Assembly (NCBI GenBank): GCA_963808235.1
Contig: CAWEEQ010000004.1
Location: 1,568,001 to 1,632,000 of the forward strand
Source of the DNA: an uncultured delta proteobacterium
Lineage (GTDB): Bacteria > Desulfobacterota > Binatia > Binatales > Binataceae
DNA: 64,000 nucleotides
Direction of reading: 5' to 3'
Part shown: positions 29,526 to 47,154 of the stretch, piece after piece
Layout of the letters: each line of letters opens with the position of its first letter
Numbering within the stretch: the first letter of the stretch is position 1
Notes under the pieces: generated by a model
What the model saw: only the letters and a program-made list of their open reading frames with translations
What the model was told of the DNA's origin: nothing
The model's database searches: none
Position numbers and translations under genes: made by a program

Positions 29526-30025
29526 CGCGCACTCACCGCGCGGCTGGATGCGGCATGATGCTTCGCAACTTTCTCAATCGGTACGTCTTTCTTGTGCGTC
29601 GCAACCATCCAGATATGGCCGAACGGATCTGTCAGCGCGCCAATTCTGTCGCCCCATTCCTTGTCCGCCACCGGCTCCATCACTTTCGCGCCCGCGGCGA
29701 CAGCGCGTTTGAACACCGCGTCCGAGTCGTCGACGTAAACATAAAAATGCACCGGCGTGCCGCCCAGCGAGTCCGGACTGCGCGACCAACCCTTGGCCGC
29801 CCACTCGGCGACATGTTTCGAGCTGTCGTCGGAAATTCTGATCAGCGAATCGCCGATCTTCAGCACCGAGTGATTAACCTTCCCGTCCGGCTCCGCCATC
29901 CGTTCCAACTCGGTCGCGCCGAACGCCTGGCGATAAAACTCGACCGCGCGCGCCGCGTCCTTGACGCTCAGAAAAGGGGTCACGCTATGCCATCCCGCCG
30001 GAATCTTTTTCACTTTGCCAGCCAT
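29522..30025 (-). CDS. VOC/glyoxalase (PhnB-like) protein
   Basis: 'VTPFLSVKDAARAVEFYRQAFGA', 'WGDR..DPFGHIW'. Confidence 0.9.
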   Translation of the reverse strand: MAGKVKKIPAGWHSVTPFLSVKDAARAVEFYRQAFGATELERMAEPDGKVNHSVLKIGDSLIRISDDSSKHVAEWAAKGWSRSPDSLGGTPVHFYVYVDDSDAVFKRAVAAGAKVMEPVADKEWGDRIGALTDPFGHIWMVATHKKDVPIEKVAKHHAASSRAVSAR

Positions 30026-30042
30026 AATTGTTCTCCCCGTTG

Positions 30043-31572: not shown

Positions 31573-32191
31573 TCGTATCACCTAACCGCACCCGCAAATT
31601 CTGCAGGCCGCGGAATTGAAGCTGCTTTATCGCTCCCTCCGTCCGCTTGAGCGCCGTCGCGATTTCGCGAATCGATTTCTGCTCCGTAAATCGCATCACG
31701 ATTACCCGCGATTGATCGATCGGAAGCCGCTCGACCAGCTTGAACAGCCGCGCGCGCCGTTCGATCTCGTCGAAGTCGGGCCCATGCTCCCCTCGATCGG
31801 GCAGATCCTCGACTTCGACTTCATTTGCGATCCGACGATCCGTGGACTTCGAACGATCGACGATCGCATTTGCCGCGATTCGATATAGCCACGCCGAAAA
31901 CGGCGCCCCGCGCCATTCGAAACGCGCGAGGTTCTTGAGCGCACTGTGAAATACGTCGGCGGTGAGATCCTGCGCGACATCCCGATCGCGAACCCGTCGC
32001 GCGATATACGCGTACACCCGCTCGAAGTTGTTCTCGTACAGCTCCGCGAATCGACTCCGATCGCGCTGCGCCGCCTCGATCAACTCCCGCTCCGCACCGT
32101 CGGGCGCGCACTTCGCACTCCGCACGGACGTCTTCAACGCCACGGATTCCGATTCTCGCCGCTCGGGCTTCAATGCGGGATCTCCAGACAC
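31565..32191 (-). CDS. ECF sigma-70 factor
   Basis: 'AQDLTADVF', 'FSAWLYRIAAN', region 4 'SIREIATALKRTEGAIKQLQFRG'. Confidence 0.93.
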   Translation of the reverse strand: MSGDPALKPERRESESVALKTSVRSAKCAPDGAERELIEAAQRDRSRFAELYENNFERVYAYIARRVRDRDVAQDLTADVFHSALKNLARFEWRGAPFSAWLYRIAANAIVDRSKSTDRRIANEVEVEDLPDRGEHGPDFDEIERRARLFKLVERLPIDQSRVIVMRFTEQKSIREIATALKRTEGAIKQLQFRGLQNLRVRLGDTNG

Positions 32192-32210
32192 ACTCGCCTC
32201 TACCTACATG

Positions 32211-32236
32211 AAACCCCGCGCCCCCGGAAAGGTTAC
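32211..32236 (-). promoter_or_regulatory. Possible ECF-type autoregulatory promoter
   Basis: GTAACC-N16-GTTT about 20 nt upstream of the sigma start. Confidence 0.35.
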
Positions 32237-32256
32237 GGTCTGATCCTGGTCATAGC

Positions 32257-32346
32257 CTCTCCCGCAGCTGTCGGCGATGTCGCCAGCCGCAAACCGGGAG
32301 AGGCCATCCGGCGACATCTATGTTGTCGGACGGGTGAGGGCGCTGG
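32257..32346. repeat. REP-like palindromic element, homolog of 26626-26715
   Basis: Same CTCTCCCGC..CCAGCCGCAA.CCGGGAGAGG..GACAT..GGGTGAGGGCGCTGG layout. Confidence 0.75.
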
Positions 32347-32366
32347 ATAAGGCGTTGTACTGAGAT

Positions 32367-32942
32367 CTAGCTGGTCGAGCCTTTATCGTTGGGCAGATTC
32401 ACGAACACCGCCGCCGTGACCACCGTGGTCCACAGCCCGTCGCGATCGCCCATCGCCGACTGCGTGATATTCCGCGTCTGCACGATCTTGTCCGACAGCT
32501 TCCACACGTCCTTGCGTTCGTCGTAACTCACGTTGGGATCGAAATCGACGCCGAGCGCCGTCGCCAGCATCGTCGCCGCGAGGTCCTCCGCGTAGTCGCC
32601 CGCCTTCTCGTCGGTCTGCCCGAAGCTCTTGTGCTCGCTGAGGTAGCCGTATTGATCGCGCTCGGCCGGGATCGCCAGGCCGACCGACGCCGCGACCAGC
32701 CGATGCGGTTCGTTGGTCGAGTTGTCGTACATCACCGCATAGACGATCTGCCCGGGAGTCAGCGTCTTGAGCCCGTCCTGAATCGAGATCACTTTGCATC
32801 CCGGCGGGAAGATCGAGCTGACCCGCACCAGGTTGAACTCCGCGATTCTCGCGTCGCGCAGCGCCAGCTCGAACGAGGTGAGTTTCTCGCGATGCTTCCC
32901 GACTCCCTTGGTCAGAAAAATTGCCTTCCCTATCGGCCCCAT
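32367..32942 (-). CDS. Pyruvoyl-dependent arginine decarboxylase
   Basis: '[26 protein letters not shown]' (Ser-Ser autocleavage site), 'YGYLSEH'. Confidence 0.9.
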
Positions 32943-33110
32943 CTATTGTCCCCGCAAATCGCGCCCCCGGCGCATTTTGATCACTGTGAAAAGTGAAAAG
33001 GTGAAAATCAACAATAGACAGGATTTCAGTTCCACGAATCAAGCGCCACCCCCGCAAGACCGGCAAATGTGACGGCCCCCGGATCCCGACCCCACGCGCA
33101 CCAATCCCCC

Positions 33111-33147
33111 GAAACGACCGCGCCGCCGAATTCCTTCGGCGGCGCGG
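33111..33147 (-). terminator. Hairpin terminator of small secreted protein 1
   Basis: 13-bp perfect stem CCGCGCCGCCGAA/TTCGGCGGCGCGG; near-identical copy at 33706-33743. Confidence 0.7.
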
Positions 33148-33168
33148 CAAACTGGCAAGCTTCAGTCT

Positions 33169-33480
33169 TTACCGATTGTCGTCGTCACTGTGGCGATCAC
33201 CATAGTTATGATTCGCCACGTCGTTGTTCAGATCGTTCTTCTGATCCTGCATGTCGGCACGATGCGCCTGGATTTCTTCTTTCTCACGAGACGCCGCGCC
33301 GTACCTTCCTTGATCCATGTCCTCGCGCTTCTCCTGCTTGTCGTGCTGGATAGCGGCGTGCTCCTGGTCGATCGACTGAGCATCGTGGTTCATGTCCTGA
33401 TAGCTCTGCGCATATGCCATCGGAAGCGCCATTAGCGTCCCCAATGCGCCTGCTGCCAACGTGAGTACAAGTCGCTTCAT
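33169..33480 (-). CDS. Small secreted hydrophilic protein (paralog 1)
   Basis: Start MKRLVLTLAAGALG with SD AGGAGG; AYA cleavage site; Asp/Gln/His-rich mature part. Confidence 0.8.
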   Translation of the reverse strand: MKRLVLTLAAGALGTLMALPMAYAQSYQDMNHDAQSIDQEHAAIQHDKQEKREDMDQGRYGAASREKEEIQAHRADMQDQKNDLNNDVANHNYGDRHSDDDNR

Positions 33481-33605
33481 AATAGGAGGCCCTCCTGGCC
33501 AGTTTGTCGCAATGTAGCCGTGGGGCAGTGAAAAGCGAGGATCACGGCATTTGATCGATTGCCATTTGCCAGAGGCACCGTGCCAGTGGCGCTTCACCTA
33601 ATTCA

Positions 33606-33621
33606 TGCAGCGGCTATGCCA
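33606..33621 (-). promoter_or_regulatory. Sigma54 (-24/-12) promoter
   Basis: TGGCATAGCCGCTGCA (GG-N10-GC); matching site upstream of paralog 2. Confidence 0.65.
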
Positions 33622-33705
33622 CAAACAAATGCAGCGCCTGCGGGATAGACTTTCCGGCGTACAGTCAGCGCAGAGTCGGCGATCGGTAAAATGTTTCGCC
33701 GCGCC

Positions 33706-33743
33706 CGAAACGACCGCGCCGCCGAATTACTTCGGCGGCGCGG
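33706..33743 (-). terminator. Hairpin terminator of small secreted protein 2
   Basis: Same 13-bp stem as 33118-33147. Confidence 0.7.
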
Positions 33744-33770
33744 ATCGTTAACTTGCTAACCCTTCAGCTC

Positions 33771-34091
33771 TTAGTCGTCGCTGTCGTGATTGCGCCATCG
33801 GTCACCGTAGTAACGATTCGCCATGTCGTTGTTCAGATCATCCTTCGTGGCCCGCTTGTCCTCACGACGCTGCTCGATTTCCGCCTGCTCACGAGCCGCC
33901 GCGCCGTATCGCCCTTGCTCCATGTCCTCGCGCTGCTCTTCGCGATCATGCTGGATACCGGCGTTATCGTGCTGAATCCTCGCCGCGTCGCCGTTCATGT
34001 CCTCCCAGCTCTGCGCATGTGCGATCGGAATCACCAGCAGGGATCCCAATGCGCCTGCTGCCAACGTGACTAGTAGTCGCTTCATAAACAC
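33771..34091 (-). CDS. Small secreted hydrophilic protein (paralog 2)
   Basis: 'MKRLLVTLAAGALG..AHAQSWEDMN..REDMEQGRYGAAARE..DLNND' closely matches paralog 1. Confidence 0.8.
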   Translation of the reverse strand: MFMKRLLVTLAAGALGSLLVIPIAHAQSWEDMNGDAARIQHDNAGIQHDREEQREDMEQGRYGAAAREQAEIEQRREDKRATKDDLNNDMANRYYGDRWRNHDSDD

Positions 34092-34187
34092 GATCTCCTT
34101 GCATGAGTTATCGCAAGTTCACGAGAGCACCCGTGAGTGCCAGGTAAATTTTGCGATTGGTGCCACGCAGCACCTACTCTCTGTGGA

Positions 34188-34203
34188 TGCAGACCCTATG
34201 CCA
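34188..34203 (-). promoter_or_regulatory. Sigma54 (-24/-12) promoter
   Basis: TGGCATAGGGTCTGCA (GG-N10-GC). Confidence 0.65.
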
Positions 34204-34674
34204 GAAATAATCGCGCGATTGCGAAATAAAAGTTTCGCAGCCGGATCCCCGCGACAAGTAAAAAGTAAAAAAGTAAATGTTTCGCCGCACCCACCCAAAA
34301 TCTTACCGCGATGTTATTACCCCTCTCCCTATCAGGAAATCTCTGCACAACGGGCCGCAGCTTCTTCCCCTCTCCCGATGGGAGAGGATTGAAGGCGAGG
34401 GACCTTATCCAGCGCGCGCTTCGCGCGATTCAAAGATTCTGCTCGGCTCCGAAACCTCGCGGAGGTTACGCAAAGCTCTCCCTCAGGAGAGACCAACGAA
34501 GCAGACAAAAATCTAGGCAGCGCATTATTTTCGAAGGACCAATCTCCCAGACGGCCGAGAGCAAAAGACCGTCCTCGGGATTTTGCGATTGATACTGGGT
34601 GCAGGGGTCACCCCTGCCGCCAGCCGCGCAGGCGTGACTAAGATTCTTATTCTCCCTCCTACCGCTTCTCCCCC

Positions 34675-35601
34675 CTACTTCGCCCCCTTCTCCCCCGCCG
34701 GCGCGATTGCGCCCTCCGTCTCCCCCGATCTCCTCCGCGCATTCCCCCGCTCTTTGCGCCGCGCGTACTTCCGCTTCCCTTCCGCCACCCGCGCATCTTC
34801 CATCGCACCATATTTGACGGGGTCGAATGGAATCAGCGGCTTCAAGCCGGCTCTCATACTGACCTTCGGGAACAGCGCCCGGTTCCGCTCGATCTCCCCA
34901 AGCGCCCAGTCGCACCAGCGGATATTCTCTTCCATCCAGTCGATTCCGCGCTTGAGCGTGAACCACGTAAACATCGTGTTCACATCGCGATATGCGTCAT
35001 CGCCCGCGAAATAGTTCTGCTCCATTTCCCGATACCGCTTCAGATAGAGCTGCCACGAGAGCCGCTCTTCGGCGATTACCTCGCGCGCACCGTCGGCCCC
35101 CAGATGACCTAGAAACCGGCACCGCAAAAGTGGCGGATGCTTCAGTCTCAACCCTTCGAATGGACCCTCGAGCCATTCGACCAGCAGCCGCTCGCCCGAG
35201 GGCGTGATCGTGTACACCTGCTTGTTGGGCCGCTTGCGCTGCGTGACCCTGCGCCTGTGGATCACCCCGAATTCTTCCATCCGTTCCAGGGTCGAGTAGA
35301 TCTGCGTGGGATGCGCATGCCAGTAATGCGCCATCGAAATATCGAACAGCTTGACCAGGTCGTATCCCGACACCCCCGGCGTCTCCGCGATAAGCCCGAG
35401 CAACGCCAAATCCAGCGTCGCCGTCCTCCCCGGCGACCGCGTAAACCGCGGAACTTCGTCGTCTTCGATATCCTCGATCTCCTCAAACGAAACCCGCCGC
35501 GGAACAACGGAATCCGCCTCACGCCCCCGCCCAATTCTTTCCTTCTTCACGACACCTAACTTTATCCGCGCCGAACCGAGGTTTCCATCGACTCCCAACA
35601 A
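34675..35601 (-). CDS. PadR-family transcriptional regulator (true start probably downstream)
   Basis: 'LALLGLIAE..SGYDL..QIYSTL..KQVYTITPSG'. Confidence 0.85.
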   Translation of the reverse strand: MLGVDGNLGSARIKLGVVKKERIGRGREADSVVPRRVSFEEIEDIEDDEVPRFTRSPGRTATLDLALLGLIAETPGVSGYDLVKLFDISMAHYWHAHPTQIYSTLERMEEFGVIHRRRVTQRKRPNKQVYTITPSGERLLVEWLEGPFEGLRLKHPPLLRCRFLGHLGADGAREVIAEERLSWQLYLKRYREMEQNYFAGDDAYRDVNTMFTWFTLKRGIDWMEENIRWCDWALGEIERNRALFPKVSMRAGLKPLIPFDPVKYGAMEDARVAEGKRKYARRKERGNARRRSGETEGAIAPAGEKGAK

Positions 35602-35678
35602 CCCGCGCTGCCCCTTATTTTTGTGTCATTGCCAGAGCCGCAGCCCAAGAATCCCGAATCCAATGACTGCAATCTTTG

Positions 35679-36300
35679 TGTCATTCTAGAGCGAAGCGAA
35701 AGCCTGCCCTGAGCGAAGCCGAACGGGAATCCCGATTCCTTTTCCGAGATCGTCCCCCTCCGTCATCCTGAACGCCGCCTATGTCATCCTGACCGAAGCC
35801 AGCAACGCGGCGCAGTGGAACTGGCTTCTGGCCTCCGGACAGCTTCGCGCCAGCGAAGCCGGTTCCGGTTTCGAGTCGCCGCGTCCAGTCGTGCACCCTG
35901 AGTATTCGCGAAGAGCCTGCCCCGAGTATTCCCGAGGGGGCGAAGCGATGCTCCTTGTTCTTCTTCAGCTCCTCATCAGAAATTCCCTCCCACCAGTTAG
36001 GATGTCGCGTTCCGCGCCACTTCTTAGCCAAGAGCTAGTGGCACGGGCGTCCCTGCCCGTGATCGATCGCGTTCCGCGCCACTTGTTATTCGCCTCTCCC
36101 GCTTAGTCGCGGGAGAGGCCGCGCCTTCGGCGCGGGTGAGGGTGCTTTTTCACGGGAGAGGCGGCCGGTCGCTTCCGCGGTCGGTAGGTGAGGGTGCAGC
36201 CGACCCAAGCAACCCGCCCAACAACGCACACGCCATCCTATCTCTGTCATTCTAGAGCGCAGCGAAAGCCTGCCCTGAGCGAAGCCGAACGGGAATCCCG
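35679..36300. repeat. Cluster of REP-like palindromes with a 56-bp direct repeat (35679-35734 and 36245-36300)
   Basis: TGTCATTCTAGAGCG(A/C)AGCGAAAGCCTGCCCTGAGCGAAGCCGAACGGGAATCCCG twice, one mismatch; GTGGCACGGGCGTCCCTGCCCGTG hairpin; GGGAGAGG/GGTGAGGG units. Confidence 0.8.
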
Positions 36301-36368
36301 GATCTTTATTCCATGATCTCGGCGCTACGCGCCTGCTAGAAGTTTGAGTGAAGATTAAGCACAGCTCA

Positions 36369-39041
36369 CTAGGGTTCACGCAATTTGAGTTTTAGTTGCG
36401 GGCTGTGCGAATCGGGAGACTCAGAACGCGTAAACTCGGAGCGCAATGAGATGACTCCGCGAATCCTGGATCTCTCTCTAACGAGCTGCACACCGAGTTC
36501 AAATTCCTTTGCAGTGCCTTCGCTCAGAGGCATCTCGAATATATAGGATTGACGGCCGCTCTCGTCGAGTTGGTTCACCGGCAATTCGAACGTGATCAAC
36601 TTTTCCACTTCGTGGTCGGATGGGTACCGCAGATCAGGGCGACGATACAACTGATCGCTGGGAAGCTGTTGAGGGTTCGAAATAACAGCGGCAGGCTGAC
36701 CACGCGTCTTTAAATCTAGCCTGCTAGATTTACCCGAGAGCTGCTCCTTCCGAAGAGAGTGCAGAGTTGCGGTTTTTACGAGCATCAATCTCTTGGTAAA
36801 CCCGCCCCGGCGTCGTAACTTCTTTCTGCGCTCAACTTCTAGCTCTGACACAGAAGAGTCTATTACTTTGATCAAGGCCAAGACGACCTCTTGCAGATCC
36901 GCCAGTTCAGAGACGACATCTGCGCCAGATCGAGCGTCTAGTGCCTCATACGCTTCCTCAACGAGCTTTCGTCTAAGAGCGAGGACTAGCGCTTCGCCTT
37001 TCAGCTCAATACTCTCTGCTCTTTCGCCGCGGCCTTCGATCTGCCTTGGAATCAGGTCGCGCACAATCTTATTATACTCGACAACGTCCTCGTCCACCCC
37101 AAACAGGTCAACACATTCCACGTCGGCTCCTAGTCGTTGTAGGATGTAGTAGGCGTGCGACAAGATGCCACCAGCGAGTTCGATTACAAATCTCTTTTCC
37201 GATGCGAGCTTCCCGAGCTCTTCAGCAAAACTGCGATTTCTGATTAGTTCAGGATCGACCGGTTCGACTATAACTCGTTCGATCCTTTTTCCACTGTATA
37301 GTGCGTTCTTGAAGTCCGTCCAGTCTTTACTAGTTCCAATTCTATGGTCGCCCGCAGAGCGATATTTGTGCCGAGGCGCCGCGGCCTTGAGGACTCCAGA
37401 TAATTCTGACTTCTGGTGATACCAAGGCAAGATAGCATGCGGGCTTATCTCGCGCTGATTGTCCAAGAACCACATGACACTCACTGGGTGCTGTTCTCTC
37501 TCGGCAATTCGCCTTGTTGTTTCAGCGATCTCGAAGAGCCAGTCTTCCTTCGTTACGCTTTTACCCCAGTCGTACGGAGGCTTTGTAAAATGTGAACGCC
37601 ATTTGCCATCCTCATCAGATGCAATGAAAAGGCCTTTATATCGTAAGCGCTTCCTATATGTATATCTTCTCTTTCGAAGAGACCGGCTGAAATTGATCTT
37701 AGTCTCCTTCGTGTCGATTTCGAATGTGTCGTGGGAAAACCAATAGAGACCTTCAGGAAGACCCCATAGCGCCTCTATTCTGACAATGCGATTACCGGGC
37801 TCCGCGCGTGCCCACGCAGAGGCGACCGACGGGATGAAGTGATGCGCGATCAAGCACACGCCTGAAGTCCAGAGGTCATTCTGCTGAATCTTCCAGCTAA
37901 AGTCTCCGAGAAGCCATTCCGTTGCTTGACTGGAAGACCTAAGATCGTCACTTCGCGGCAACATCTCTCGCTTGTTCTGAGGGATCGCCTCGCCGTCAGT
38001 ACGTATTACCAGAGGCCGTTTTGTAAGCGCTTCCAAATCACCGAGACATGCAGAAGGCACAACTCCCTCGCGGATAGATTTCAGAACCGCCGCATCGTCG
38101 AGCACATAAAAGACCGGCATCGCGTAACCGAGACTCCTGTACATCTTTGCATTGTGCAACTTTCTGTAGCGATCATAGTCACGCGAGTTAGCTTTTCTGA
38201 ACACCCGAAAAAGATCGCCCTCGATCTCAGGTATTCTGCCTTGCAGAAGCGATTTTGGGGCGGTTCCACGACGGTGTTCCTCGGCGTCAGCTTGAACGAT
38301 CATAATGGTGCGGCCGTCCCATACCCATTCGAAGTGAATTCGCGAGGCTAAGGGCGCCGCCCACAACGCCACGCTCTTCAACGAGTTACTGATCCCTGTC
38401 TCAGAGCTGCATGTCAGCAACGAAATTGACCTATTTCCGGCATCTCGCCAGTTTCTTACGGCGATTCGAGCAGTATCTCCGGGCTGAACAGATTCTGGCT
38501 CGATCTCCACGATCCAGTCCCGTCCCTCGTGACTCAATCGCCGGACATTTGAGAGGTGTCCCTTTCGAACCGTAGTGACCGCCTCTTGAATGACCCAGTG
38601 CAATTGCTCTGCATCATTTCGACTTAGATGAGATAGCATCTTCCGAATCTCATCCGCCACGTCGCGGGGCGCGCATCGAGTCGAATCCAAGCGACCTCGT
38701 TGATCCAGCGTCTCTTCAGTTCCGCTAGATCGTACAAACACTTCTTTCTCGGCCCAAAGATCCAACTTTCGCAAACAGTCGTCTAACCATTCTTCAAAAG
38801 ATGAATCGTTTAGCTGCGCCTGCATCGAAGAAGCCGCGACCACGAAGAAACGCGGCACCCAACGTTGGGGCAGGCAGCAAAGGCCATATGCTTTCCAGCC
38901 TATCTGCTTTACGGAAATCTCAGCTGCGTCAAGGAGGATCGGACCCTCTCGCGAGAGACAAAGTACAGAACAAATCGGAACTAGCATGCGGCGAACTCGC
39001 CGCCGCCGTTGCTTCTTATCCTCCTTCTCTTTAGACGCCAC
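36369..39041 (-). CDS. Fusion of PEP-synthase/PPDK-like ATP-grasp domains, phospho-His domain and MazG-like NTP pyrophosphohydrolase (COG4997-like)
   Basis: IGWKAYGL, VRSSGTEE, WVIQE, IRTD, IEALWGLPEGL, GGILSHA; then 'YNKIVRDLIP..KLVEEAYE..ELADLQEV..KLRRRGGF'. Confidence 0.8.
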   Translation of the reverse strand: MASKEKEDKKQRRRRVRRMLVPICSVLCLSREGPILLDAAEISVKQIGWKAYGLCCLPQRWVPRFFVVAASSMQAQLNDSSFEEWLDDCLRKLDLWAEKEVFVRSSGTEETLDQRGRLDSTRCAPRDVADEIRKMLSHLSRNDAEQLHWVIQEAVTTVRKGHLSNVRRLSHEGRDWIVEIEPESVQPGDTARIAVRNWRDAGNRSISLLTCSSETGISNSLKSVALWAAPLASRIHFEWVWDGRTIMIVQADAEEHRRGTAPKSLLQGRIPEIEGDLFRVFRKANSRDYDRYRKLHNAKMYRSLGYAMPVFYVLDDAAVLKSIREGVVPSACLGDLEALTKRPLVIRTDGEAIPQNKREMLPRSDDLRSSSQATEWLLGDFSWKIQQNDLWTSGVCLIAHHFIPSVASAWARAEPGNRIVRIEALWGLPEGLYWFSHDTFEIDTKETKINFSRSLRKRRYTYRKRLRYKGLFIASDEDGKWRSHFTKPPYDWGKSVTKEDWLFEIAETTRRIAEREQHPVSVMWFLDNQREISPHAILPWYHQKSELSGVLKAAAPRHKYRSAGDHRIGTSKDWTDFKNALYSGKRIERVIVEPVDPELIRNRSFAEELGKLASEKRFVIELAGGILSHAYYILQRLGADVECVDLFGVDEDVVEYNKIVRDLIPRQIEGRGERAESIELKGEALVLALRRKLVEEAYEALDARSGADVVSELADLQEVVLALIKVIDSSVSELEVERRKKLRRRGGFTKRLMLVKTATLHSLRKEQLSGKSSRLDLKTRGQPAAVISNPQQLPSDQLYRRPDLRYPSDHEVEKLITFELPVNQLDESGRQSYIFEMPLSEGTAKEFELGVQLVRERSRIRGVISLRSEFTRSESPDSHSPQLKLKLREP

Positions 39042-39077
39042 AGGTTATTTTAGCAACCGCGCTTGCTCGGGAATCTG

Positions 39078-39908
39078 TCAGACCCACTTCGGGATGCGAA
39101 GGAGAGACGAGAAGTAGAGGATCTCGGCACCTTTATGAGCCGAGCTAGCCGTATGCATGAGCGCAAGATGTTTACAGCGTATGCCTCTGTACAGTTTTCT
39201 AATTTCATTCACGTCGTCGTAAGACACAATCCAAGGACAGGCGAGCTTTTCAACGCTCTTTCTAACTGCGACGTGATCTTCAGGCTCGTAGTCGTTGAGA
39301 TACAAGTGCCTTCCTGGACGGTAGTAGGGAGGGTCAAGATAGACTAAGGTTTTCCGCGACGAGCGACAATCTTTGAGAACATCGAGAGCATCTCGTTTAG
39401 AAATGAATATCCGGTTCTTAGAGGAGGAAATGCGCGATATCCGCCGCGCCAGTTCGGTTCGGTTAAATCGAGCATCCAGCTTCCACGTTCCTTTTTGCTC
39501 TTTCCCCCCTATCATACCTCCGTTGAGAATCCCGGAATGACTTGTGCGGTTCAAAAAGAACTTCGCGAATCCAAGTGCAAGCGTACCCGACCGTGTACCT
39601 TCCGCGTAGATAGCCTTTTGTCTGTACCACTCGTCTGGTGTGACAGATACCTCTCGGATTAGTTCCAAGAGTTCACGCGTTTTCGTTAATACACTTCGCC
39701 AGAAAGCGTAGACCGCGGAATCGAGATCGTTGAGGTGAATCTCGGTTACGAGGCCGTCGAACAGCAGGCTAAGAGCCAGACTGGCGCCTCCCGCATACGG
39801 TTCTATGTAGATCGGTTCGTCTAGGCGGTTAATTTCGATCACACGTCGGAGGAATGGTGCAATTCTCCACTTACCTCCAGGGTAGCGAAGAGGAGAGGCG
39901 CTTCTCAC
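39078..39908 (-). CDS. DNA adenine methyltransferase (Dam/D12 class)
   Basis: SPLRYPGGK, EPYAGG, NDLD, FFLNRT, YLDPPYY, WIVSYD. Confidence 0.93.
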   Translation of the reverse strand: MRSASPLRYPGGKWRIAPFLRRVIEINRLDEPIYIEPYAGGASLALSLLFDGLVTEIHLNDLDSAVYAFWRSVLTKTRELLELIREVSVTPDEWYRQKAIYAEGTRSGTLALGFAKFFLNRTSHSGILNGGMIGGKEQKGTWKLDARFNRTELARRISRISSSKNRIFISKRDALDVLKDCRSSRKTLVYLDPPYYRPGRHLYLNDYEPEDHVAVRKSVEKLACPWIVSYDDVNEIRKLYRGIRCKHLALMHTASSAHKGAEILYFSSLLRIPKWV

Positions 39909-40531
39909 AGGCTGTCAGCACCGTCCGCGCTAGGTGGCTTAGGTTGTTCGCCTGCTTTTCCCTTTCCACTCATCGTACCGAATAGAATGTCAGCTATCTC
40001 GGTAAGCTTAGCGATGGCGCTATCAGAGAAGTAACCGACCAAAAAAGAGACGGCTACGATCACCGAACAGGATCTAGTCGCGGTCGCGTCGAAAACCCGA
40101 AACAAGCCAGAGGAAATCAGAGCTATCATCGCGAAAGCGAGTCCTCCCGAGATGTGTGGTGTAAAGAAACGCCACAACCTCCGATCGAGATGCCACCATT
40201 GTTTTGCTACGGAATGATAGAGCCACTTGAGATCGAATAGCGTTCCCCCAAGAGTTCCGCCTAGCCAGGCCAAGCCGTACTTTAGGACGGAGCTATACCT
40301 CTGCTGACTGAGGCCCATCCACTTGTTCGGGAGTTCAAGCCAGAGAGCCAGCATAAGAAGAGGTGCAGCAACGAGGAGAACTCCCAAGTATGCAGATTCG
40401 AGCAAGATACCGCGGCGAGCTTCTGGGTCTGAGTACTTGGACTTCCAGTCGAGAGGATTTCGTTTGTCAGTCAGGTCGGCGGGCGCGAAACCAAGGACCT
40501 GCTCCGACTCCGGTGTGTCCGATTTTTTCAG
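39905..40531 (-). CDS. Membrane protein with about 4 TM segments; probable CTG start at 40531 (TTG 40405 in ORF track)
   Basis: 'GGTLGGTLFDLKWLYHSV', 'FLVGYFSDSAIAKL'; frame is open up to a TAA at 40544-40546. Confidence 0.75.
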   Translation of the reverse strand: MKKSDTPESEQVLGFAPADLTDKRNPLDWKSKYSDPEARRGILLESAYLGVLLVAAPLLMLALWLELPNKWMGLSQQRYSSVLKYGLAWLGGTLGGTLFDLKWLYHSVAKQWWHLDRRLWRFFTPHISGGLAFAMIALISSGLFRVFDATATRSCSVIVAVSFLVGYFSDSAIAKLTEIADILFGTMSGKGKAGEQPKPPSADGADSL

Positions 40532-41184
40532 GCCGCAACTCGCTTAAACTCGCCCAACGCATCGAGGTTGGCAGCCCATGTTCTGGCCTGATGGATGGTT
40601 GCCGATACGTTAGATAACTGTGGATGTTCGCGCCAGCTGAATTGATCAGGCAACCCGATTTGTGAAGCGATCGCGCGCCTGAACAACTGACTACCAAACT
40701 CACCGTGGCTAGCAATGCGTCCTAATCCGATCGGTTGTTCAAGATACAGGTAGTCATCGCCCCTGCTATGAGCAGTCTGGCATTCGGCAAGAGAGGCGGG
40801 AGACCAACGGACATCTTTCGGCAAGAATGGCTGAACGGCAGGAAGCAGATCGAACTTCAACGCGACAATGTGCAAGTGCGCATGATCCACTCCACAGCCT
40901 ATCAAGGAATTAGCCTTGCTTGGACCGTGTTCGAAGGCGCAAACCGAGGAGTAGGTTCGCGTCATCTGCGAGACCAGCGCATTCTTTACGTGTTTCGCCT
41001 CGGCGATCAGATCGCTGTCTAACGCACCCAACGAAACAGCATGCTTCTTCGGCAAAACGAGCAACCAACTTTCAACGAGCGCCCCGAGTGACGGTAACAC
41101 AAGAAAATTGGCTGACTCGAAGAGCGGCTCGTTCCAAAACTCGGGCTGTTTCGAGGAAAGATCAATACATATTTTGCATGCCAT
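40528..41184 (-). CDS. HIT-superfamily nucleotide hydrolase/transferase
   Basis: N-terminal CxxC, 'LLVLPKKH', 'FEHG', 'GCGVDHAHLHIV'; SD AGGAGG. Confidence 0.85.
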   Translation of the reverse strand: MACKICIDLSSKQPEFWNEPLFESANFLVLPSLGALVESWLLVLPKKHAVSLGALDSDLIAEAKHVKNALVSQMTRTYSSVCAFEHGPSKANSLIGCGVDHAHLHIVALKFDLLPAVQPFLPKDVRWSPASLAECQTAHSRGDDYLYLEQPIGLGRIASHGEFGSQLFRRAIASQIGLPDQFSWREHPQLSNVSATIHQARTWAANLDALGEFKRVAA

Positions 41185-41329
41185 TGTTTTCGTCCTCCTT
41201 CCTCCTGCCGACCTGATTTTAGGACAGAACTACCTATTTTCAAAGGCCCCTGCGGACAACAAAATTTATGTTTTGTCTAGGGGAGCCCTTTAGGCGGGAG
41301 CGGCCGATTGGCGCTGGGCAACGGGCGTG

Positions 41330-42130
41330 ATTCTCGCCCGTCGGCCCGCACCCTCACCTACCCCCGTCGCTCTGCGACGAGGCCTCCTCTCCCGTAACCT
41401 AACGGGCGAGGTGACAAACCGAAGCCCGGAATGCGGCGCAACAGACAATCGCGCCGGAAAATGTCCCCCACCCTCACCCTCCCCCGACGAACGTGGGAGG
41501 GAATTTGACGAGGGCCCAAATAAAAAGGAGCATCGCTTCGCGGAGATCCTTCGACTTCGCTCAGGATGACAGAAGAAGGCGATCCGCATGGAGGAGAAAC
41601 TGTGTGGGCGAGGGAACCAGCACTCTCCGCCCCTAAACTTCTAACAGGCGCGCCGCGCCGCATCCGATTTTTTTCTCCCACCAGAGGAAGCGCGAAACCC
41701 ACTATGGGTTTCGCATGTCCGGGTCCCGCATCTCTTCTCTTGGCCTCCCCCCAGTCACACTTCAGGCGCGCAGCGCCGCATCCTGTCTTTGTTTAGACGA
41801 ACGGGAAGGTGTGAAAAACGAAACCCGTACGGGGTTTCGTGATTGCTTCGTCCTGCGCGCGCGATACTCGATGGGTGTGTCAAGGTTAACCTTGACACAC
41901 ACGCTCCACTTCTGACCCGTGCGTAGGGCCCGAATCGTGTCTCGTATGGACAGACGGGAAGCAGTGAAAAACGAAAGCAGCGGCCATCGCTCCACGCACC
42001 CGAGGTTCGGCACCCAAGCACGAAACACGGCCGCTTGTTGAAAGTTCTAACAGGCGCAGCGCCGCATCCTGTTTTTGTTTAGACGCAAGGGGAAGCGTGA
42101 AACCTGCGTGAGGTTTCACATATTCTCTCC
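41330..42130. repeat. Dense cluster of REP/MITE-like palindromes
   Basis: Perfect 26-bp palindrome at 41875-41900; three units of CAGGCGC..GCGCCGCATCC plus GAAACC-Nx-GGTTTC hairpin; GAGATCCTTCGACTTCGCTCAGGATGACA at 41543-41571. Confidence 0.8.
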
Positions 42131-42166
42131 CGCTTCCCTTTTGCGCACGCGCGATGCGCGCGACGG

Positions 42167-43537
42167 TCACGCGGCGGCGGGCACCCAGTTGCCGTGGAAG
42201 CCCCAGGGCACTCGATGCTGCAATTTCACGCGTGCTACTGGCTTGCGCGCGAAGTCTTGCGCGTCGAGGACGACCATCTCGCTGCGATTCTGATGCTCGT
42301 CGTACCAGACTGCCAGGATCCATCCGTCGTCTTCGGCGGATTTTGCGGCGCGCGGCACGAACACCGGCTCTCCGGGCATAAAGCCTGCCCCCAGCGCGTG
42401 CGTTTCGAGCTTGTTGGTCTGATAGTCGCGCTTCAGGATCGCATTGAAGGGAGCGTCGGTGTCGAGCGACGAATGTTTCCCGCCGACGAAGTATCCGTAG
42501 CGATGCTTCCTTCCGGCGAGTCGTTCGTCGAGCCGCGGAAACTCGTTGCTGACCTCGTCAATCTGGTTCTGCTTGAGCGAGCCGTCGCGCAAGTTCAGGT
42601 TCCATCGCCACGGCAGCGGCGGATTTCCGCCAAACGTGTTGCCGGTCATGTCGAGCGCCGCCATCCGGCATCCATCGACAATCAGCGATCCGTTTTCCTC
42701 GTACGCATTGAGAAAATGAAACACGTAGAACGCTTCGTCCTGGAACCATTTCACCTCACCGGTCGCGCGATTCATCGCGCCGATTTTGGTCCCATGCTGC
42801 GGCTCCCACATCACGAGCGGCTTTCCCTGCGATGCGTTCTCGATACGGAACACTGACGGACAGACAAAAAAGATCGCGTAGTTATCGGTCGCGATAAAAT
42901 CATGCATCATCGCCGGCAGTCCGGTGTCGATCGCGCGCGACTCGATCATCGTTCCGTCGCGCCCGGCTCGATACCACGTCACGTACGGCGGCATCGCCGA
43001 GTACCCGAAGAACAGAATGTCGCCGGTCGCCGCATCGAACTTCGGATGCGCCGTCATGGGCCCGTTCAGTTTCCCGCCGAAGTCGAACAGGCCGATCGTC
43101 TCGAGCGTCTCGGGCTTCAGCTCATGCGGCAGCCCCGCCTCCCACAGCGCGAGCATCCGATTCGCATAGCCGATGATGTTGGTATTCGCCGCGTTCTTGA
43201 ACGGCGGGATGTTCGGCGGCAACTCGCGCGGCTGCTCGATCAACCCGCCGTAAAGCGCCCGCCCCACTTTCATCTCCGCCTTCAACCCGTCCGTCCGCAC
43301 GTAGCGATTGCGATACGCCGCGCGCCCGTCGCGCAGCATGAACGCATGCACCATCCCGTCCCCGTCGAACCAGTGATACCGCCCCGGCGGATTGAAATGC
43401 GGATTCGGCCCGATTCGATACAGCGCACCGTTGAGTTCACGCGGCAGCTCGCCCTCGATCTCGAGATCATAGGCGTCGCCCTCTTCGCGCCACGGCGCAT
43501 AGTTTCCGCTCAGGAATGGGTTGGTCGAGTCGTACAT
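42167..43537 (-). CDS. Carotenoid oxygenase (RPE65/lignostilbene dioxygenase) family
   Basis: 'RIGPNP..HWFDGDGMVH', Fe ligands TAHPK, MHDF, FHF, GFHG; EFPR; EPVF. Confidence 0.93.
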   Translation of the reverse strand: MYDSTNPFLSGNYAPWREEGDAYDLEIEGELPRELNGALYRIGPNPHFNPPGRYHWFDGDGMVHAFMLRDGRAAYRNRYVRTDGLKAEMKVGRALYGGLIEQPRELPPNIPPFKNAANTNIIGYANRMLALWEAGLPHELKPETLETIGLFDFGGKLNGPMTAHPKFDAATGDILFFGYSAMPPYVTWYRAGRDGTMIESRAIDTGLPAMMHDFIATDNYAIFFVCPSVFRIENASQGKPLVMWEPQHGTKIGAMNRATGEVKWFQDEAFYVFHFLNAYEENGSLIVDGCRMAALDMTGNTFGGNPPLPWRWNLNLRDGSLKQNQIDEVSNEFPRLDERLAGRKHRYGYFVGGKHSSLDTDAPFNAILKRDYQTNKLETHALGAGFMPGEPVFVPRAAKSAEDDGWILAVWYDEHQNRSEMVVLDAQDFARKPVARVKLQHRVPWGFHGNWVPAAA

Positions 43538-43588
43538 TGAAAAACCTCCGGGGTCGCTATATAGTAGAATACACTATTATTGTAATAC

Positions 43589-43605
43589 TTGACTAGACGA
43601 GTCAA
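43589..43605. promoter_or_regulatory. Inverted repeat between divergent genes (possible operator)
   Basis: TTGACT-agacg-AGTCAA in an AT-rich intergenic region. Confidence 0.4.
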
Positions 43606-43671
43606 CCGGTGCCGGTGCGCAATCGGAACGCTGCATTGCGAACTTTCTGACGGCGACTTACGATCTTCGTC

Positions 43672-44205
43672 ATGCTCGCCGATGCGCTTTGGTTCGGGGC
43701 CGGATTGTTTGCGTGGACGTTTGTCGAGTACCTGATTCATGGGGTGCTCGGGCATGCGCATCGGACGGTCGTCAGCCGGATGCACTGGGTGCATCATAGC
43801 GATCCTAGTGCGGTGTTTGCACTGGGGGCATGGATTCCGGTGACAGTGGTGCTGGTCGGCGGGTGGGTGATTTGGGGGGCGGCGCCATCGGTGATCTTGT
43901 TCGGTGGGGTGGCGGCGGGATTTGCCGGTTACGAGTTGATTCATTACCGGATTCATTTTGCGCGGCCGGCTTGCGCGCTGGAAGAGCGGCTGCGGGCGCG
44001 GCATCTGGCGCATCATTTTGCACAGCCCGATGCGATCTTCGGGGTGACCTCGCGGTTTTGGGATGTGGTATTCGGGACCGAGCCTGAAGCGTCGCGCATG
44101 CGGGAGCTGGCGGAGGCTGGTTCCGCGATCGCGCCGCACGAAGGTGCGAGCAATCTTGACCGGATGATTGGCCGGGTGATCGGCCGGAGCATCCCAGCCC
44201 GTTGA
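43672..44205 (+). CDS. Fatty acid hydroxylase/sterol desaturase family
   Basis: His boxes 'EYLIH..GH', 'HWVHH', 'HYRIH', 'HLAHH', 'FGVTS.FWD.VFGT'. Confidence 0.88.
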   Translation: MLADALWFGAGLFAWTFVEYLIHGVLGHAHRTVVSRMHWVHHSDPSAVFALGAWIPVTVVLVGGWVIWGAAPSVILFGGVAAGFAGYELIHYRIHFARPACALEERLRARHLAHHFAQPDAIFGVTSRFWDVVFGTEPEASRMRELAEAGSAIAPHEGASNLDRMIGRVIGRSIPAR

Positions 44206-44227
44206 CACATAGCTCAAGTCGAGCTAT
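44202..44227 (+). promoter_or_regulatory. -35 TTGACA next to a palindromic operator (likely PadR autoregulation)
   Basis: TTGACA at 44202, then ATAGCTC-aagtc-GAGCTAT at 44209-44227. Confidence 0.55.
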
Positions 44228-44324
44228 TGGCTTGATAGGTATGACTCAGGGATCGATCAGGACGCGGACGGCGCCGCTGTTCGCGGGCGGAGCGGCGTTC
44301 GAGATCGAGCAGACGCCGCCGCGG

Positions 44325-44936
44325 ATGGATGTGAAGTTTCCGATCCTGGGGTTTTTGAAGGAGGCGGAAGCGACCGGCTACGATCTGAAGAATCGTTTTC
44401 AGGATCCGGTCGGGTTCTTTTACCGGGTCAGTGACGGATCGATCTATCCGGCGCTCAAGAAGCTTGCGCGCGACGGGCTGGTTACGCTGCGGAGCGAACG
44501 CAACGGGCGCCGGACGCGGAAGGTATATGCAATCACGGCCAGGGGCCGGGAGCATTTTGGACGCATGCTGCGCGAGCCGGCGCAGCCCCTGTTCGTCTTC
44601 GACGAATCGCAGGTGAAGATCTATTTCGCGGACCAGGAACCGGAGATTGCGCTTGAGCATATGGAGCGCTCGCGCCGCGACGATGAAATGCGGACCGCGA
44701 TCCTGGCGCGGATGGTCGGCGATATGCGCCGCGTCGGGGTGAGCCCGGTGCGAATAGTCACGGCCGAACTCGGACGAGCTATCACGAAGGCGAAGGCGCG
44801 CGTGCTGGCCAGGCTTTGCGCGCAATTGAAACGCGAACTACAAGGGAAGCGCCGCGCGAAATCGCCGCTCAAACCGCGCGCTATGGCGACCGTCGGTGTG
44901 GCGGGGAAAATCAATCGGAGCCGGCTCACAGGATAA
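44325..44936 (+). CDS. PadR-family transcriptional regulator
   Basis: 'ILGFL..TGYDL..GSIYPALKKL..RKVYAITARG'. Confidence 0.9.
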   Translation: MDVKFPILGFLKEAEATGYDLKNRFQDPVGFFYRVSDGSIYPALKKLARDGLVTLRSERNGRRTRKVYAITARGREHFGRMLREPAQPLFVFDESQVKIYFADQEPEIALEHMERSRRDDEMRTAILARMVGDMRRVGVSPVRIVTAELGRAITKAKARVLARLCAQLKRELQGKRRAKSPLKPRAMATVGVAGKINRSRLTG

Positions 44937-44942
44937 AGGGTT

Positions 44943-45668
<726 letters not shown>

Positions 45669-45702
45669 CGGGAGAGAAGAGGAGAAAGAGAATAGAGGAA
45701 AC

Positions 45703-45850
45703 CGAAACCTCACGCAGGTTTCAGACTTCCCGTGGCGGGAGAAAAAGATCAGGATGCGGCGCGGAGCGCCGGTTAGAAGTTTTATGAGTGAGGAGAGATC
45801 TTGCCTCTCCCGCGGGTGGCGATTGTCGCCAGCTGCATGCCGGGAGAGGC
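45703..45850. repeat. Inverted copy of the 41.6-42.1 kb repeat unit plus a CTCTCCCG/CGGGAGAG hairpin
   Basis: GAAACCTCACGCAGGTTTC ... GGATGCGGCGCGGAGCGCCGGTTAGAAGTT. Confidence 0.65.
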
Positions 45851-45897
45851 GATTTGGAAAGGACTTGGCGCGCTGAGCAGTAGGTAGTGACTGAGTC

Positions 45898-47037
45898 ATG
45901 AAGTACTTTGCGTTGGTCTTTAAGAATTTGCTGCGGAGTAAGCGGCGCACCTTTTTGACGGTGGTTTCGATTGCGGTTTCGCTGTTTATTTTTTCGGCGC
46001 TGGTCAGTATGCCTACCGTGGCCAATCAGATACTTGGCGATAGCGTGTCGTCGACCCGGATTGCCACTCACAACAAGGCCGGCCTGGCCTATTCTATTCC
46101 GGTTGCTTACAAGCAGAAGATCGTGATCGTGCCGCATGTCGAAGCGGCGATGGCGCAGAGCTGGTTCGGCGGAATTCTGCATGATGTGAACGATCAGTTT
46201 CCGAACTTCGCGGTCGATCACGAAGTCGTGGACAAGGTTTATTCCGATTGGAATATCTCGCCGGAGTCGGTCGCGCAGTTCAAAAAGATTCGCACCGCGT
46301 GCCTGGTCGGGAGCGAGACGATGAAGCGTTTCAATCTTCATGTCGGCCAGCAGATCGTGCTCAAGGGTGGAATCTATCCGTTCAACGTCACGCTCAATAT
46401 CGTCGGGACGATCGGAGGCAAGGCGCCGCCGAATTTCCTGATTTTCCGCCGCGACTACCTGGAAGAGGCGGCCGGACGGCCGGGCTTCGTCGATGTGATC
46501 TGGGTCAAAGTCGACACGGCGAGCAACGTGCCGCAGGTGATCGCCGCTATAGATGAAGGTTTCGCCAACTCGTCGGCGGAGACGGTGTCGGAATCGGAAT
46601 CGGCGTTTATCGGCGGCTTTCTGCAGATGTATCGGACCTTCTTCAGGATGGCGGAAATTCTGGGCTTCATAGTCGTGATGACTATAGGACTGGTTGCGGC
46701 GAACACGGCGGCGATGTCGATTCGCGAGCGGCGCGGCGAAATCGCGGTGATGAGATCGATTGGGTTCAGGTCGCGGACGATTCTGGCGCTGCTGCTTTCG
46801 GAGTCGCTGCTAATAGGACTTATCGGCGGCTTGATTGGATGCGGCGCGGCGTTTTTCGTGCTCAAGATTTTTTCGATTGGCAATGTCGGCGGGCCGCTCG
46901 GAACGATCAGCATGCCGCCGGTGGTGCTGGCGGAGACGCTGGTGATGGCGGCGTTGATTGGGCTGTTCAGCGCGCTGGTGCCGGCGAGTTCGGCTGCGCG
47001 CAGGAATATTGTGGATGCGTTGAGAACGGTCGCGTGA
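45898..47037 (+). CDS. ABC transporter permease (MacB/FtsX family), copy 1
   Basis: 'KNLLRSKRRTFLT', 'SIRERRGEIAVMRSIGF', 'VDALR'. Confidence 0.92.
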   Translation: MKYFALVFKNLLRSKRRTFLTVVSIAVSLFIFSALVSMPTVANQILGDSVSSTRIATHNKAGLAYSIPVAYKQKIVIVPHVEAAMAQSWFGGILHDVNDQFPNFAVDHEVVDKVYSDWNISPESVAQFKKIRTACLVGSETMKRFNLHVGQQIVLKGGIYPFNVTLNIVGTIGGKAPPNFLIFRRDYLEEAAGRPGFVDVIWVKVDTASNVPQVIAAIDEGFANSSAETVSESESAFIGGFLQMYRTFFRMAEILGFIVVMTIGLVAANTAAMSIRERRGEIAVMRSIGFRSRTILALLLSESLLIGLIGGLIGCGAAFFVLKIFSIGNVGGPLGTISMPPVVLAETLVMAALIGLFSALVPASSAARRNIVDALRTVA

Positions 47038-47042
47038 GTCGA

Positions 47043-47109
47043 GATGGCATTGAGCTCGATGTTTGCGCCCTCACCCGACGCGGCGTCGGCCTCTCCCGAA
47101 GGGAGAGGC
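47043..47109 (+). repeat. 67-bp exact direct repeat (second copy 48417-48483)
   Basis: GATGGCATTGAGCTCGATGTTTGCGCCCTCACCCG...GAAGGGAGAGGC identical in both places. Confidence 0.9.
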
Positions 47110-47154
47110 AGGATCGGACTGGAATCGGAAGCGGCAGAGGTTAGTGAGTAAGTC

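Follow-up and report, generated by a model that had tools for sequence, protein, structure and literature searches.

A conserved and mobile four-gene cassette with a Dam-like methylase and an ATP-grasp/MazG-like enzyme in an uncultured Binataceae bacterium, a candidate methylation-coupled defence variant

In a stretch of 64,000 nucleotides (nt) from the genome of an uncultured delta proteobacterium of the Binataceae (contig CAWEEQ010000004.1, assembly GCA_963808235.1), called the window here, we analysed four adjacent genes which had been predicted from the sequence alone to form a nucleotide-centred defence or signalling cassette. All coordinates of the cassette are window positions. The genes encode a HIT-superfamily protein, a small membrane protein, a D12-class (Dam-like) N6-adenine DNA methyltransferase (the methylase) and a multidomain enzyme of 890 amino acids (aa), which we call BIG. 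The four genes are real and conserved as a unit, and the cassette was acquired horizontally as a discrete mobile unit. It is best filed as a candidate methylation-coupled defence variant with new protein families, and a self-contained anti-phage system is the explanation that we tentatively prefer.

Four genes conserved as one unit

The genes of the cassette are, in the order of transcription:

40528–41184, minus strand: HIT-superfamily gene, 218 aa
39905–40531, minus strand: membrane-protein gene, about 208 aa if started at CTG 40531, 166 aa from TTG 40405
39078–39908, minus strand: D12-class (Dam-like) N6-adenine DNA methyltransferase gene, 276 aa
36369–39041, minus strand: BIG gene (multidomain enzyme), 890 aa

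The analysis recovered the same four minus-strand open reading frames (ORFs) as the original prediction, co-oriented and head to tail within 36369–41184, with the claimed overlap of 4 nt between the membrane-protein gene and the methylase gene (39905–39908) and the claimed gap of 36 nt between the methylase gene and the BIG gene (39042–39077). The lower guanine-plus-cytosine (GC) content was likewise confirmed, with fractions of 0.48–0.54 in the cassette against 0.57–0.65 in most 500-nt intervals of the flanks.

For the analysis of other genomes, a pattern scan with one genome per species was applied, which gave 119 matches and led to 72 loci with a BIG relative. Co-occurrence was counted where 1600 nt or more were available upstream of BIG, which applied to 64 loci. 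The original prediction hinged on the co-occurrence of the homologues, and they do co-occur. The HIT and membrane-protein genes lie directly upstream of BIG in 60 of 64 loci, a methylase gene is present in 60 of 64, and 58 of 64 contain all four genes. Among the 72 loci and the window (73 sources), the recurrent ORF families are BIG (72), the methylase (65), the membrane protein (65) and the HIT protein (63). No fifth conserved gene was found in these sources, the next real family occurring in at most 6 loci if shadow ORFs inside BIG are set aside. The order HIT, membrane protein, BIG is invariant, and the methylase gene occupies five different positions. It is located upstream of the HIT gene (23), between the membrane-protein gene and BIG (18, window included), downstream in convergent orientation (8), downstream on the same strand (3) or upstream on the opposite strand (3). 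Identity to the window proteins co-varies across loci (BIG against methylase, rho 0.87, n = 50), a value which is descriptive only, since related loci are not independent. Decayed exceptions to the four-gene set are L040, L063, L067 and L070; at L040 the membrane-protein gene is present and was missed because of the distance threshold.

A distant form of the cassette is located on a plasmid of Caulobacter rhizosphaerae. A HIT-like gene (E 4e-24) and a membrane-protein gene (E 3e-22) are followed there by a BIG homologue of 23% identity, and the methylase is an unrelated 618-aa protein annotated as class I S-adenosylmethionine (SAM) methyltransferase. Fusions of the methylase with the HIT protein were found in metagenomic sequences. 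P0125, a protein of 510 aa with 12 member sequences, matches the window methylase with 41% identity over positions 5–276 and the window HIT protein with 32% identity over positions 317–505. By its length and Pfam listing P0126 (517 aa, D12 Pfam family) is probably a fusion of the same kind, and P0127 (494 aa, no Pfam on record) may be one by its length. Because the methylase is replaced by a non-homologous methylase on the Caulobacter plasmid and occurs fused to the HIT protein, it is an integral part of the cassette with a functional tie to the HIT protein, and a methylase of another family can take its place.

Other fusions of HIT relatives appear in precomputed Pfam assignments of metagenomic proteins, with class I SAM methyltransferase domains in P0128 (447 aa) and with a cytidylate-kinase/AAA_18 domain in P0129 (431 aa). 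On the Caulobacter plasmid, a gene for a 713-aa GNAT acetyltransferase is located directly downstream of the cassette (L074:9516-11657); its PIN_3 match reaches 25 bits (cut-off 27).

Protein families of the cassette

The earlier assignments of the HIT protein, the membrane protein and the D12/Dam-class methylase all hold. The methylase matches Pfam PF02086 with 63.3 bits (cut-off 22), and its DPPY motif at 192–195 and its N-terminal RYPGGK motif are invariant in the homologues. It does not reach the cut-off of TIGR00571 'dam' (57.9 against 114.85). Among the PADLOC models, it matches PD-Lambda-5_B (E 1.5e-108) and the type II methyltransferase model MTase_II (3.7e-95). A second D12-class methyltransferase is encoded elsewhere in the genome (G000:C4:2565360-2566040, Pfam E 5.5e-42, open frame of 360 aa).

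The HIT protein contains the histidine triad HAHLHIV at 101–107 (H101-A-H103-L-H105), a CxxC at the N-terminus and the motif FEHG; the 61 homologues compared conserve all three. Within the triad, H103 and H105 do not vary, and H101 occurs in at least 90% of the homologues in each of two sets (61 and 31). The Pfam families CwfJ_C_1, DcpS_C and HIT match at E 0.0015–0.005, all below their cut-offs (HIT 17.9 bits, cut-off 21.5). A profile of 31 homologues found the HIT proteins 3o0m and 1y23 in the PDB at E 1e-4 over positions 1–107, and CWF19L1 was matched by the HIT-family profile over almost the full length at E 0.023. The protein may resemble the GalT branch of the superfamily. A predicted complex of methylase and HIT protein scored 0.00 against a mark of 0.32, a comparison made without controls that has no bearing on binding.

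The frame of the membrane protein is open to 40543, and its first canonical start is TTG 40405. The 42 residues before this TTG align with homologues and include the invariant residues D22 and R24, which makes the longer form of about 208 aa very likely real. The sole fitting start candidate for this form is CTG 40531, overlapping the stop codon of the HIT gene (CTGA). The predicted overlap at 40528–40531 therefore agrees with the open frame and the conserved N-terminus but requires a CTG start. In the closest relative (L002) the membrane-protein gene is likewise without canonical start, and in L003 an in-frame canonical start is present further upstream. The protein consists of a conserved N-terminus of about 45 residues, predicted to be cytosolic, followed by three to four hydrophobic helices, of which one is strong and the others are weaker. 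The charged residues K102, D116, R117, R121, D170 and K175 (208-aa numbering) do not vary among the homologues. It belongs to no Pfam, NCBIfam or PADLOC family, and none of 34 family members matched PADLOC. Its relatives in the Atlas fall only into clusters of 'hypothetical protein'. A weak PHROG match (phrog_22917, 1.5e-8) was obtained; like the PHROG hint for the HIT protein, it could not be traced to a phage genome.

BIG has no match in Pfam, NCBIfam, PADLOC, PHROGs or the PDB sequences. A word-index search gave 457 homologues, mostly of about 850–900 aa, some of which are named MazG-superfamily nucleoside triphosphate (NTP) pyrophosphohydrolases by the Joint Genome Institute (JGI) and NCBI. 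In an exhaustive profile search, 680 cluster representatives reached E ≤1e-30 and 4133 reached E ≤1e-10. The AlphaFold model (mean predicted local distance difference test score, pLDDT, 70) is of high confidence across residues 20–440 and contains two ATP-grasp modules. In a separate model of residues 552–890 (pLDDT 75), an alpha/beta, a helical and a C-terminal beta part are seen. The following parts were distinguished:

38268–38996, minus strand: residues 16–258, first ATP-grasp module (from fold comparison)
37389–38213, minus strand: residues 277–551, second ATP-grasp module, PPDK_N/rifampin-phosphotransferase type (from fold comparison)
37101–37367, minus strand: residues 559–647, small alpha/beta domain with invariant GGxLSH (H629) (from model and conservation)
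36807–37016, minus strand: residues 676–745, MazG/PRA-PH-like all-alpha NTP pyrophosphohydrolase core (from motifs and fold)
36438–36647, minus strand: residues ~799–868, C-terminal beta-sheet domain, variable among homologues (from model and alignments)

The first module is most similar to DdlA (8evv, Z 10.3, 160 residues aligned, root-mean-square deviation (rmsd) 4.5), and the ATP-grasp domains of ATP-citrate lyase and ACD match with Z of about 10. The second is similar to rifampin phosphotransferase (5hv1, Z 15.8, 247 aligned, rmsd 4.2), HpeI (9goj, 15.3) and PPDK (1vbg, 9.1); Foldseek gave 5hv2 at 1.5e-7 and phosphoenolpyruvate (PEP) synthase 2ols at 1e-5. This likeness is at the fold level only: Pfam PPDK_N matches weakly in 4 of 32 BIG homologues and not in the window BIG, and hhalign gave no significant similarity of the BIG family to the PPDK and the MazG encoded by this genome (probability <1%). 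BIG thus shares the PPDK_N-type ATP-grasp fold of rifampin phosphotransferase, PEP synthase and PPDK, but its ATP-grasp is duplicated, no swivel and no substrate domain were found, and the sequence stays below the family thresholds.

The small alpha/beta domain has generic fold matches only (Z 6–7) and is a candidate phospho-carrier; its GGxLSH motif resembles the phosphohistidine motif. At E up to 10, the phosphohistidine swivel family PF00391 matched two other genes of the genome only, and not BIG. PEP-utilizers swivel chains are absent from both fold-search lists for the C-terminal model, for which Foldseek gave nothing at E ≤0.001. In the helical core, E695, E696, E699, D702, E712, D715 and E718 are invariant. 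The best fold match is 1yvw (Z 8.3, 70 residues aligned), followed by 3c90 (6.7), 7ody (6.5), 2q5z (6.4), 2gta (6.1) and 2a3q (within 6.1–6.7), values in the grey zone which helical bundles can reach by chance. They agree with the invariant acidic pattern and with weak PRA-PH matches in 18 of 32 homologues (window BIG E 0.32), and the distant Caulobacter homologue, with 21.6 bits, lies just above the cut-off of 21.3. The EExxE...D...E..D pattern and the best fold match are those of MazG/PRA-PH enzymes, but in BIG this core is embedded in a large multidomain protein. The 'dikinase/MazG fusion' of the original prediction stands at the fold level, with the amendments that the ATP-grasp is duplicated, that no canonical swivel was detected and that the phospho-carrier is a candidate. 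Many homologues match only to about residue 770. A subgroup of 950–1024 aa (P0153, P0154, P0156 and others), about 100 residues longer, matches the profile to about residue 735 and over a second stretch, and has a differing C-terminal region.

With the HIT triad and CxxC, the MazG-type acidic residues and the DPPY motif intact, the enzymes of the cassette look active as judged by their catalytic residues.

Insertion site, distribution and mobility

BIG was not found in any of the 40 relatives searched, which comprise 24 genomes from the same genus and 16 from the same class; one of the 40 is unpublished (G023). The closest relatives occur in metagenome-assembled genomes (MAGs) of Binataceae (78% identity) and Acidobacteriaceae (73%), and further loci were found in Acidobacteriota, Nitrospirota, Thermodesulfobacteriota, Pseudomonadota, Bacteroidota, Bacillota, Patescibacteria and others. 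In all six same-genus genomes examined, the orthologues of the PadR-family and RPE65-family genes which border the cassette are 78–130 nt apart; in the window they are separated by about 6.5 kb. Eight of the 72 loci have a BIG gene broken into fragments. In L024, L025 and L042 the cassette has a tyrosine integrase as neighbour, and in L057 a Mu/Tn7-like transposase. The absence from the relatives, the insertion between adjacent genes, the low GC content, the integrases and transposases beside other loci and the decay of BIG together establish that the cassette was acquired horizontally as a discrete mobile unit.

The features around the cassette are:

34675–35601: PadR-family regulator gene
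35602–42166: inserted segment between the PadR-family and RPE65-family genes (from comparison with same-genus genomes)
35617–36345: left cluster of repeats resembling repetitive extragenic palindromic (REP) elements
41216–41243, minus strand: promoter-like site TTGAAA-16-TAAAAT, 10 of 12 positions, 32 nt upstream of the HIT gene
41280–42102: right REP-like repeat cluster, in part the inverted counterpart of the left one (repeats I1–I17, D1, D3, D6)
42167–43537: RPE65-family oxygenase gene

Repeats are present in both flanks, as had been noted from the sequence. One 63-nt unit of the left cluster has 17 matches genome-wide, which identifies the repeats as REP-like dispersed elements and not as terminal repeats of the cassette; transposon ends were rejected on the ground of this scattering. 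A 49-nt unit (D1) occurs three times in 41768–42102, with a spacing of 133–153 nt, just past the 3' end of the RPE65 gene. The promoter-like site is suggestive by its position alone, since the number of such sites across the region (3) is not above chance (mean 2.5 in shuffled sequences). In line with the earlier reading, no integrase, restriction nuclease or other nuclease family was found among the 10 ORFs flanking the cassette, and no tRNA within 30000–48000. Beyond the PadR gene, three ORFs at 32383–34392 are without counterpart in the six same-genus regions and form a second variable stretch beside the insertion; one of them weakly matches DUF3450.

Relatives of BIG, the membrane protein and the HIT protein were not found in GenBank phages by tblastn, nor were relatives of the BIG or HIT families in IMG/VR, and a single plasmid in PLSDB carries a relative. 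The lack of matches in phage collections suits a host-side function. The survey of the neighbourhood took, on either side, the closest called ORF with a length of 110 aa or more (128 ORFs, 72 loci, the 25 commonest families listed) and cannot measure enrichment in defence islands. The most frequent Pfam families among these ORFs are Phage_integrase (5), RadC (5), DDE transposase (3), resolvase (2) and N6_N4 methylase (2). A 373-aa RadC-like JAB protein adjoins the cassette in L047, L048, L049, L062 and L065, loci whose named sources are Nitrosomonas and Bacteroidetes MAGs, and L047, L048 and L065 also have a gene for an APH(6)-type aminoglycoside kinase upstream. In an Acinetobacter sp. (L035) the cassette adjoins glmS, the region where Tn7-like elements usually attach.

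Possible function and competing explanations

The combination matches no named system, as originally supposed. Only the methylase matches PADLOC, and no description of the four-gene combination was found in the full texts of the literature searched. CBASS and Pycsar, which had been named as analogies, were rejected, since no CD-NTase or pyrimidine cyclase model of PADLOC matched at E up to 0.1. MADS is an eight-gene operon with ATPase-nuclease modules (MAD3/4, MAD7/8) (PMC13662399); it was rejected as well, because the cassette has four genes and the searches gave neither a P-loop ATPase nor a Toprim nuclease family for it. As to type II restriction-modification (RM), neither the cassette nor the 10 flanking ORFs gave a match to a nuclease family, and restriction enzymes often escape family models.

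The methylase is shared with PD-lambda-5, being a member of the PD-Lambda-5_B family. An mrr-deleted host was needed by the authors of PD-lambda-5, who term it a compacted RM plus abortive infection (Abi) system (Vassallo et al. 2022; PMC9519451). The partners in the cassette, a HIT protein, a membrane protein and an ATP-grasp/MazG enzyme, are not part of PD-lambda-5. A PD-Lambda-5_A-type gene is located beside the cassette or its methylase in 4 loci, with strong matches (E ≤1.7e-63) in L031, L032 and L072 and a weak one (7e-8) in L029; in L031 and L072 it directly adjoins the methylase gene. None of the four window proteins matches PD-Lambda-5_A, and the two A models find nothing in the genome (93% complete). 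An identification of the cassette as PD-lambda-5 was rejected, as the A component was found in neither the window nor the genome.

Two recently described systems are similar in logic. In Metis, N6-methyl-dAMP (m6dAMP) from Dam-methylated host DNA, which is degraded on phage infection, triggers an NADase or an effector with three transmembrane helices; the HAD phosphatase MisB keeps the uninfected cell free of the signal, and the authors predict operons that bring a methylase of their own (Osterman et al.; 10.1101/2025.11.05.686725). Metis types II and III would share with the cassette the adenine methylation mark, a small unannotated three-helix membrane effector, an accessory nucleotide-degrading enzyme and the predicted own-methylase operons. 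They differ in that Pfam found no HAD phosphatase of MisB type and no MisA-type NADase in the cassette, and in that neither an 890-aa ATP-grasp/MazG enzyme nor a HIT enzyme is reported for Metis in the text available. In PUA-Calcineurin-CE-HAD (PUA-Cal-HAD), m6dAMP triggers depletion of dNTPs, the effector is MazG-like in rare variants, and genes of N6-adenine methylases are often located nearby (10.64898/2026.01.15.699771). The nucleotide-depleting response, the MazG-like variants and the methylase linkage resemble what is proposed here, but Pfam found no PUA, calcineurin-like or HAD domain in the cassette, and its MazG-like domain shares one protein with two ATP-grasp modules. MazG and 'MazG-C' are also among the predicted, unvalidated defence domains of DefensePredictor (PMC13092281).

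We consider a defence function of the cassette probable, with somewhat better than an even chance. That it is a self-contained, methylation-coupled anti-phage system of the abortive-infection type with its own DNA mark appears to us a possibility with a little less than an even chance. In such a system, the Dam-like methylase would, by homology, mark the host chromosome with N6-methyladenine (m6A), and a phage that degrades the chromosome would release N6-methyl-deoxyadenosine nucleotides, as seen in E. coli for other systems. The substrates of the HIT and BIG enzymes may be these nucleotides or other adenine nucleotides related to them. A basal methylated-adenine signal could be kept low by the HIT enzyme, as by MisB in Metis, and BIG could either convert this signal in a phosphoryl transfer or, after its activation, deplete (d)NTPs through its MazG-like domain. 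The small membrane protein would then be the killing or arresting effector, acting as pore or channel. The circuit of writer, eraser and membrane effector put forward earlier appears more plausible by this comparison, because Metis and PUA-Cal-HAD are m6dAMP systems with membrane or nucleotide-depleting effectors. The Metis-like mechanism in particular is possible and, on balance, unlikely. A more specific version is improbable: the cassette would write its own m6A mark, the tandem ATP-grasp/MazG enzyme would turn the N6-methyl-deoxyadenosine nucleotide set free on phage attack into a second messenger, either phosphorylated or HIT-derived, that opens the membrane-protein pore, and the HIT enzyme would erase the background.

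Several observations weigh against a defence system of this kind. The HIT protein, the membrane protein and BIG match no model of PADLOC 2.0, and Pfam found no HAD, PUA or other known modified-base reader in the cassette. For the MazG and 'swivel' assignments, the scores lie in the grey zone. No HIT enzyme is known to act as a dAMP phosphatase, and the analogy with MisB is loose. The second D12-class methyltransferase makes another source of m6A in the genome possible. The neighbours in the window are the PadR regulator, the RPE65-family oxygenase and an ABC transporter, with no defence genes, and no evident defence island was seen around the cassette in the window; among the neighbour families listed for the other loci, few are defence types beyond PD-Lambda-5_A and type II methylases. 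L058 contains BIG alone, and L016 has an intact triad of HIT, membrane-protein and BIG genes with no methylase within 8 kb.

The last case also bears on an explanation along the lines of classical restriction, in which the methylase would mark self and the triad, in the place of PD-lambda-5_A, would attack unmethylated incoming DNA or trigger death on sensing it. Under strict restriction, a triad such as that of L016 would be lethal unless another methylase serves. Searches of the three partners, in which the C-terminal end of BIG was covered only together with other parts of the protein, gave no sign of a nuclease, a helicase or a recognisable domain for DNA binding. On the other side, the methylase is exchanged between loci while the triad stays constant, and constant partners with an exchangeable methylase are known from BREX- or DISARM-like systems. 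The strong match to the type II methyltransferase model, the company of PD-Lambda-5_A-type genes in 4 loci and the membership of the methylase in the family of PD-lambda-5, a system termed a compacted RM+Abi, speak for this explanation too, which we regard as rather unlikely. A non-immune role in DNA hypermodification or nucleotide sanitation, with BIG and the HIT protein making, activating or clearing N6-modified adenine nucleotides from the turnover of methylated DNA and the membrane protein exporting the product, is also given little weight. HIT and MazG enzymes both act at the nucleotide alpha-phosphate, MazG-type enzymes are annotated as house-cleaning NTP pyrophosphatases, the name which JGI and NCBI give to homologues, and methylase-HIT fusions exist. 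House-cleaning functions are usually inherited vertically, but BIG is patchy (0 of 40 relatives), and the cassette is a discrete insertion with integrases or transposases alongside elsewhere and with frequent decay. DNA hypermodification pathways are common in phages, but the cassette was not found in the phage collections searched.

An exporter-coupled phosphotransferase for antibiotics or other xenobiotics, to which the methylase and the HIT protein would be incidental, is very improbable. The best fold matches of BIG residues 277–551, rifampin phosphotransferase and HpeI, a kinase subunit for aromatic compounds (Z 15.8 and 15.3), are what suggests it, but this likeness is confined to the ATP-binding domain, and no rifampin-binding or PEP-utilizers domain was found. 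The co-occurrence, the replacement methylase and the fusions indicate that the methylase and the HIT protein are not incidental, and the MazG-like domain would be left unexplained.

Methylation-linked defence has lately been extended from classical restriction to the sensing of methylated mononucleotides that are released on degradation of the host genome. If the preferred explanation of the cassette as a methylation-coupled anti-phage system is true, it would be a portable version which carries its own methylase and is independent of the host Dam. It would newly tie three families to immunity: a HIT enzyme, a fusion of tandem PPDK_N-like ATP-grasp and MazG-like domains, and a small membrane protein. 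If the messenger version were also true, the cassette would be the first immune pathway in which dikinase-type ATP-grasp and HIT enzymes process a danger nucleotide. The ATP-grasp/MazG architecture is of enzymological interest by itself, and since the BIG family comprises at least 680 clusters at 50% identity in many phyla, a function assigned to it would annotate many genomes.

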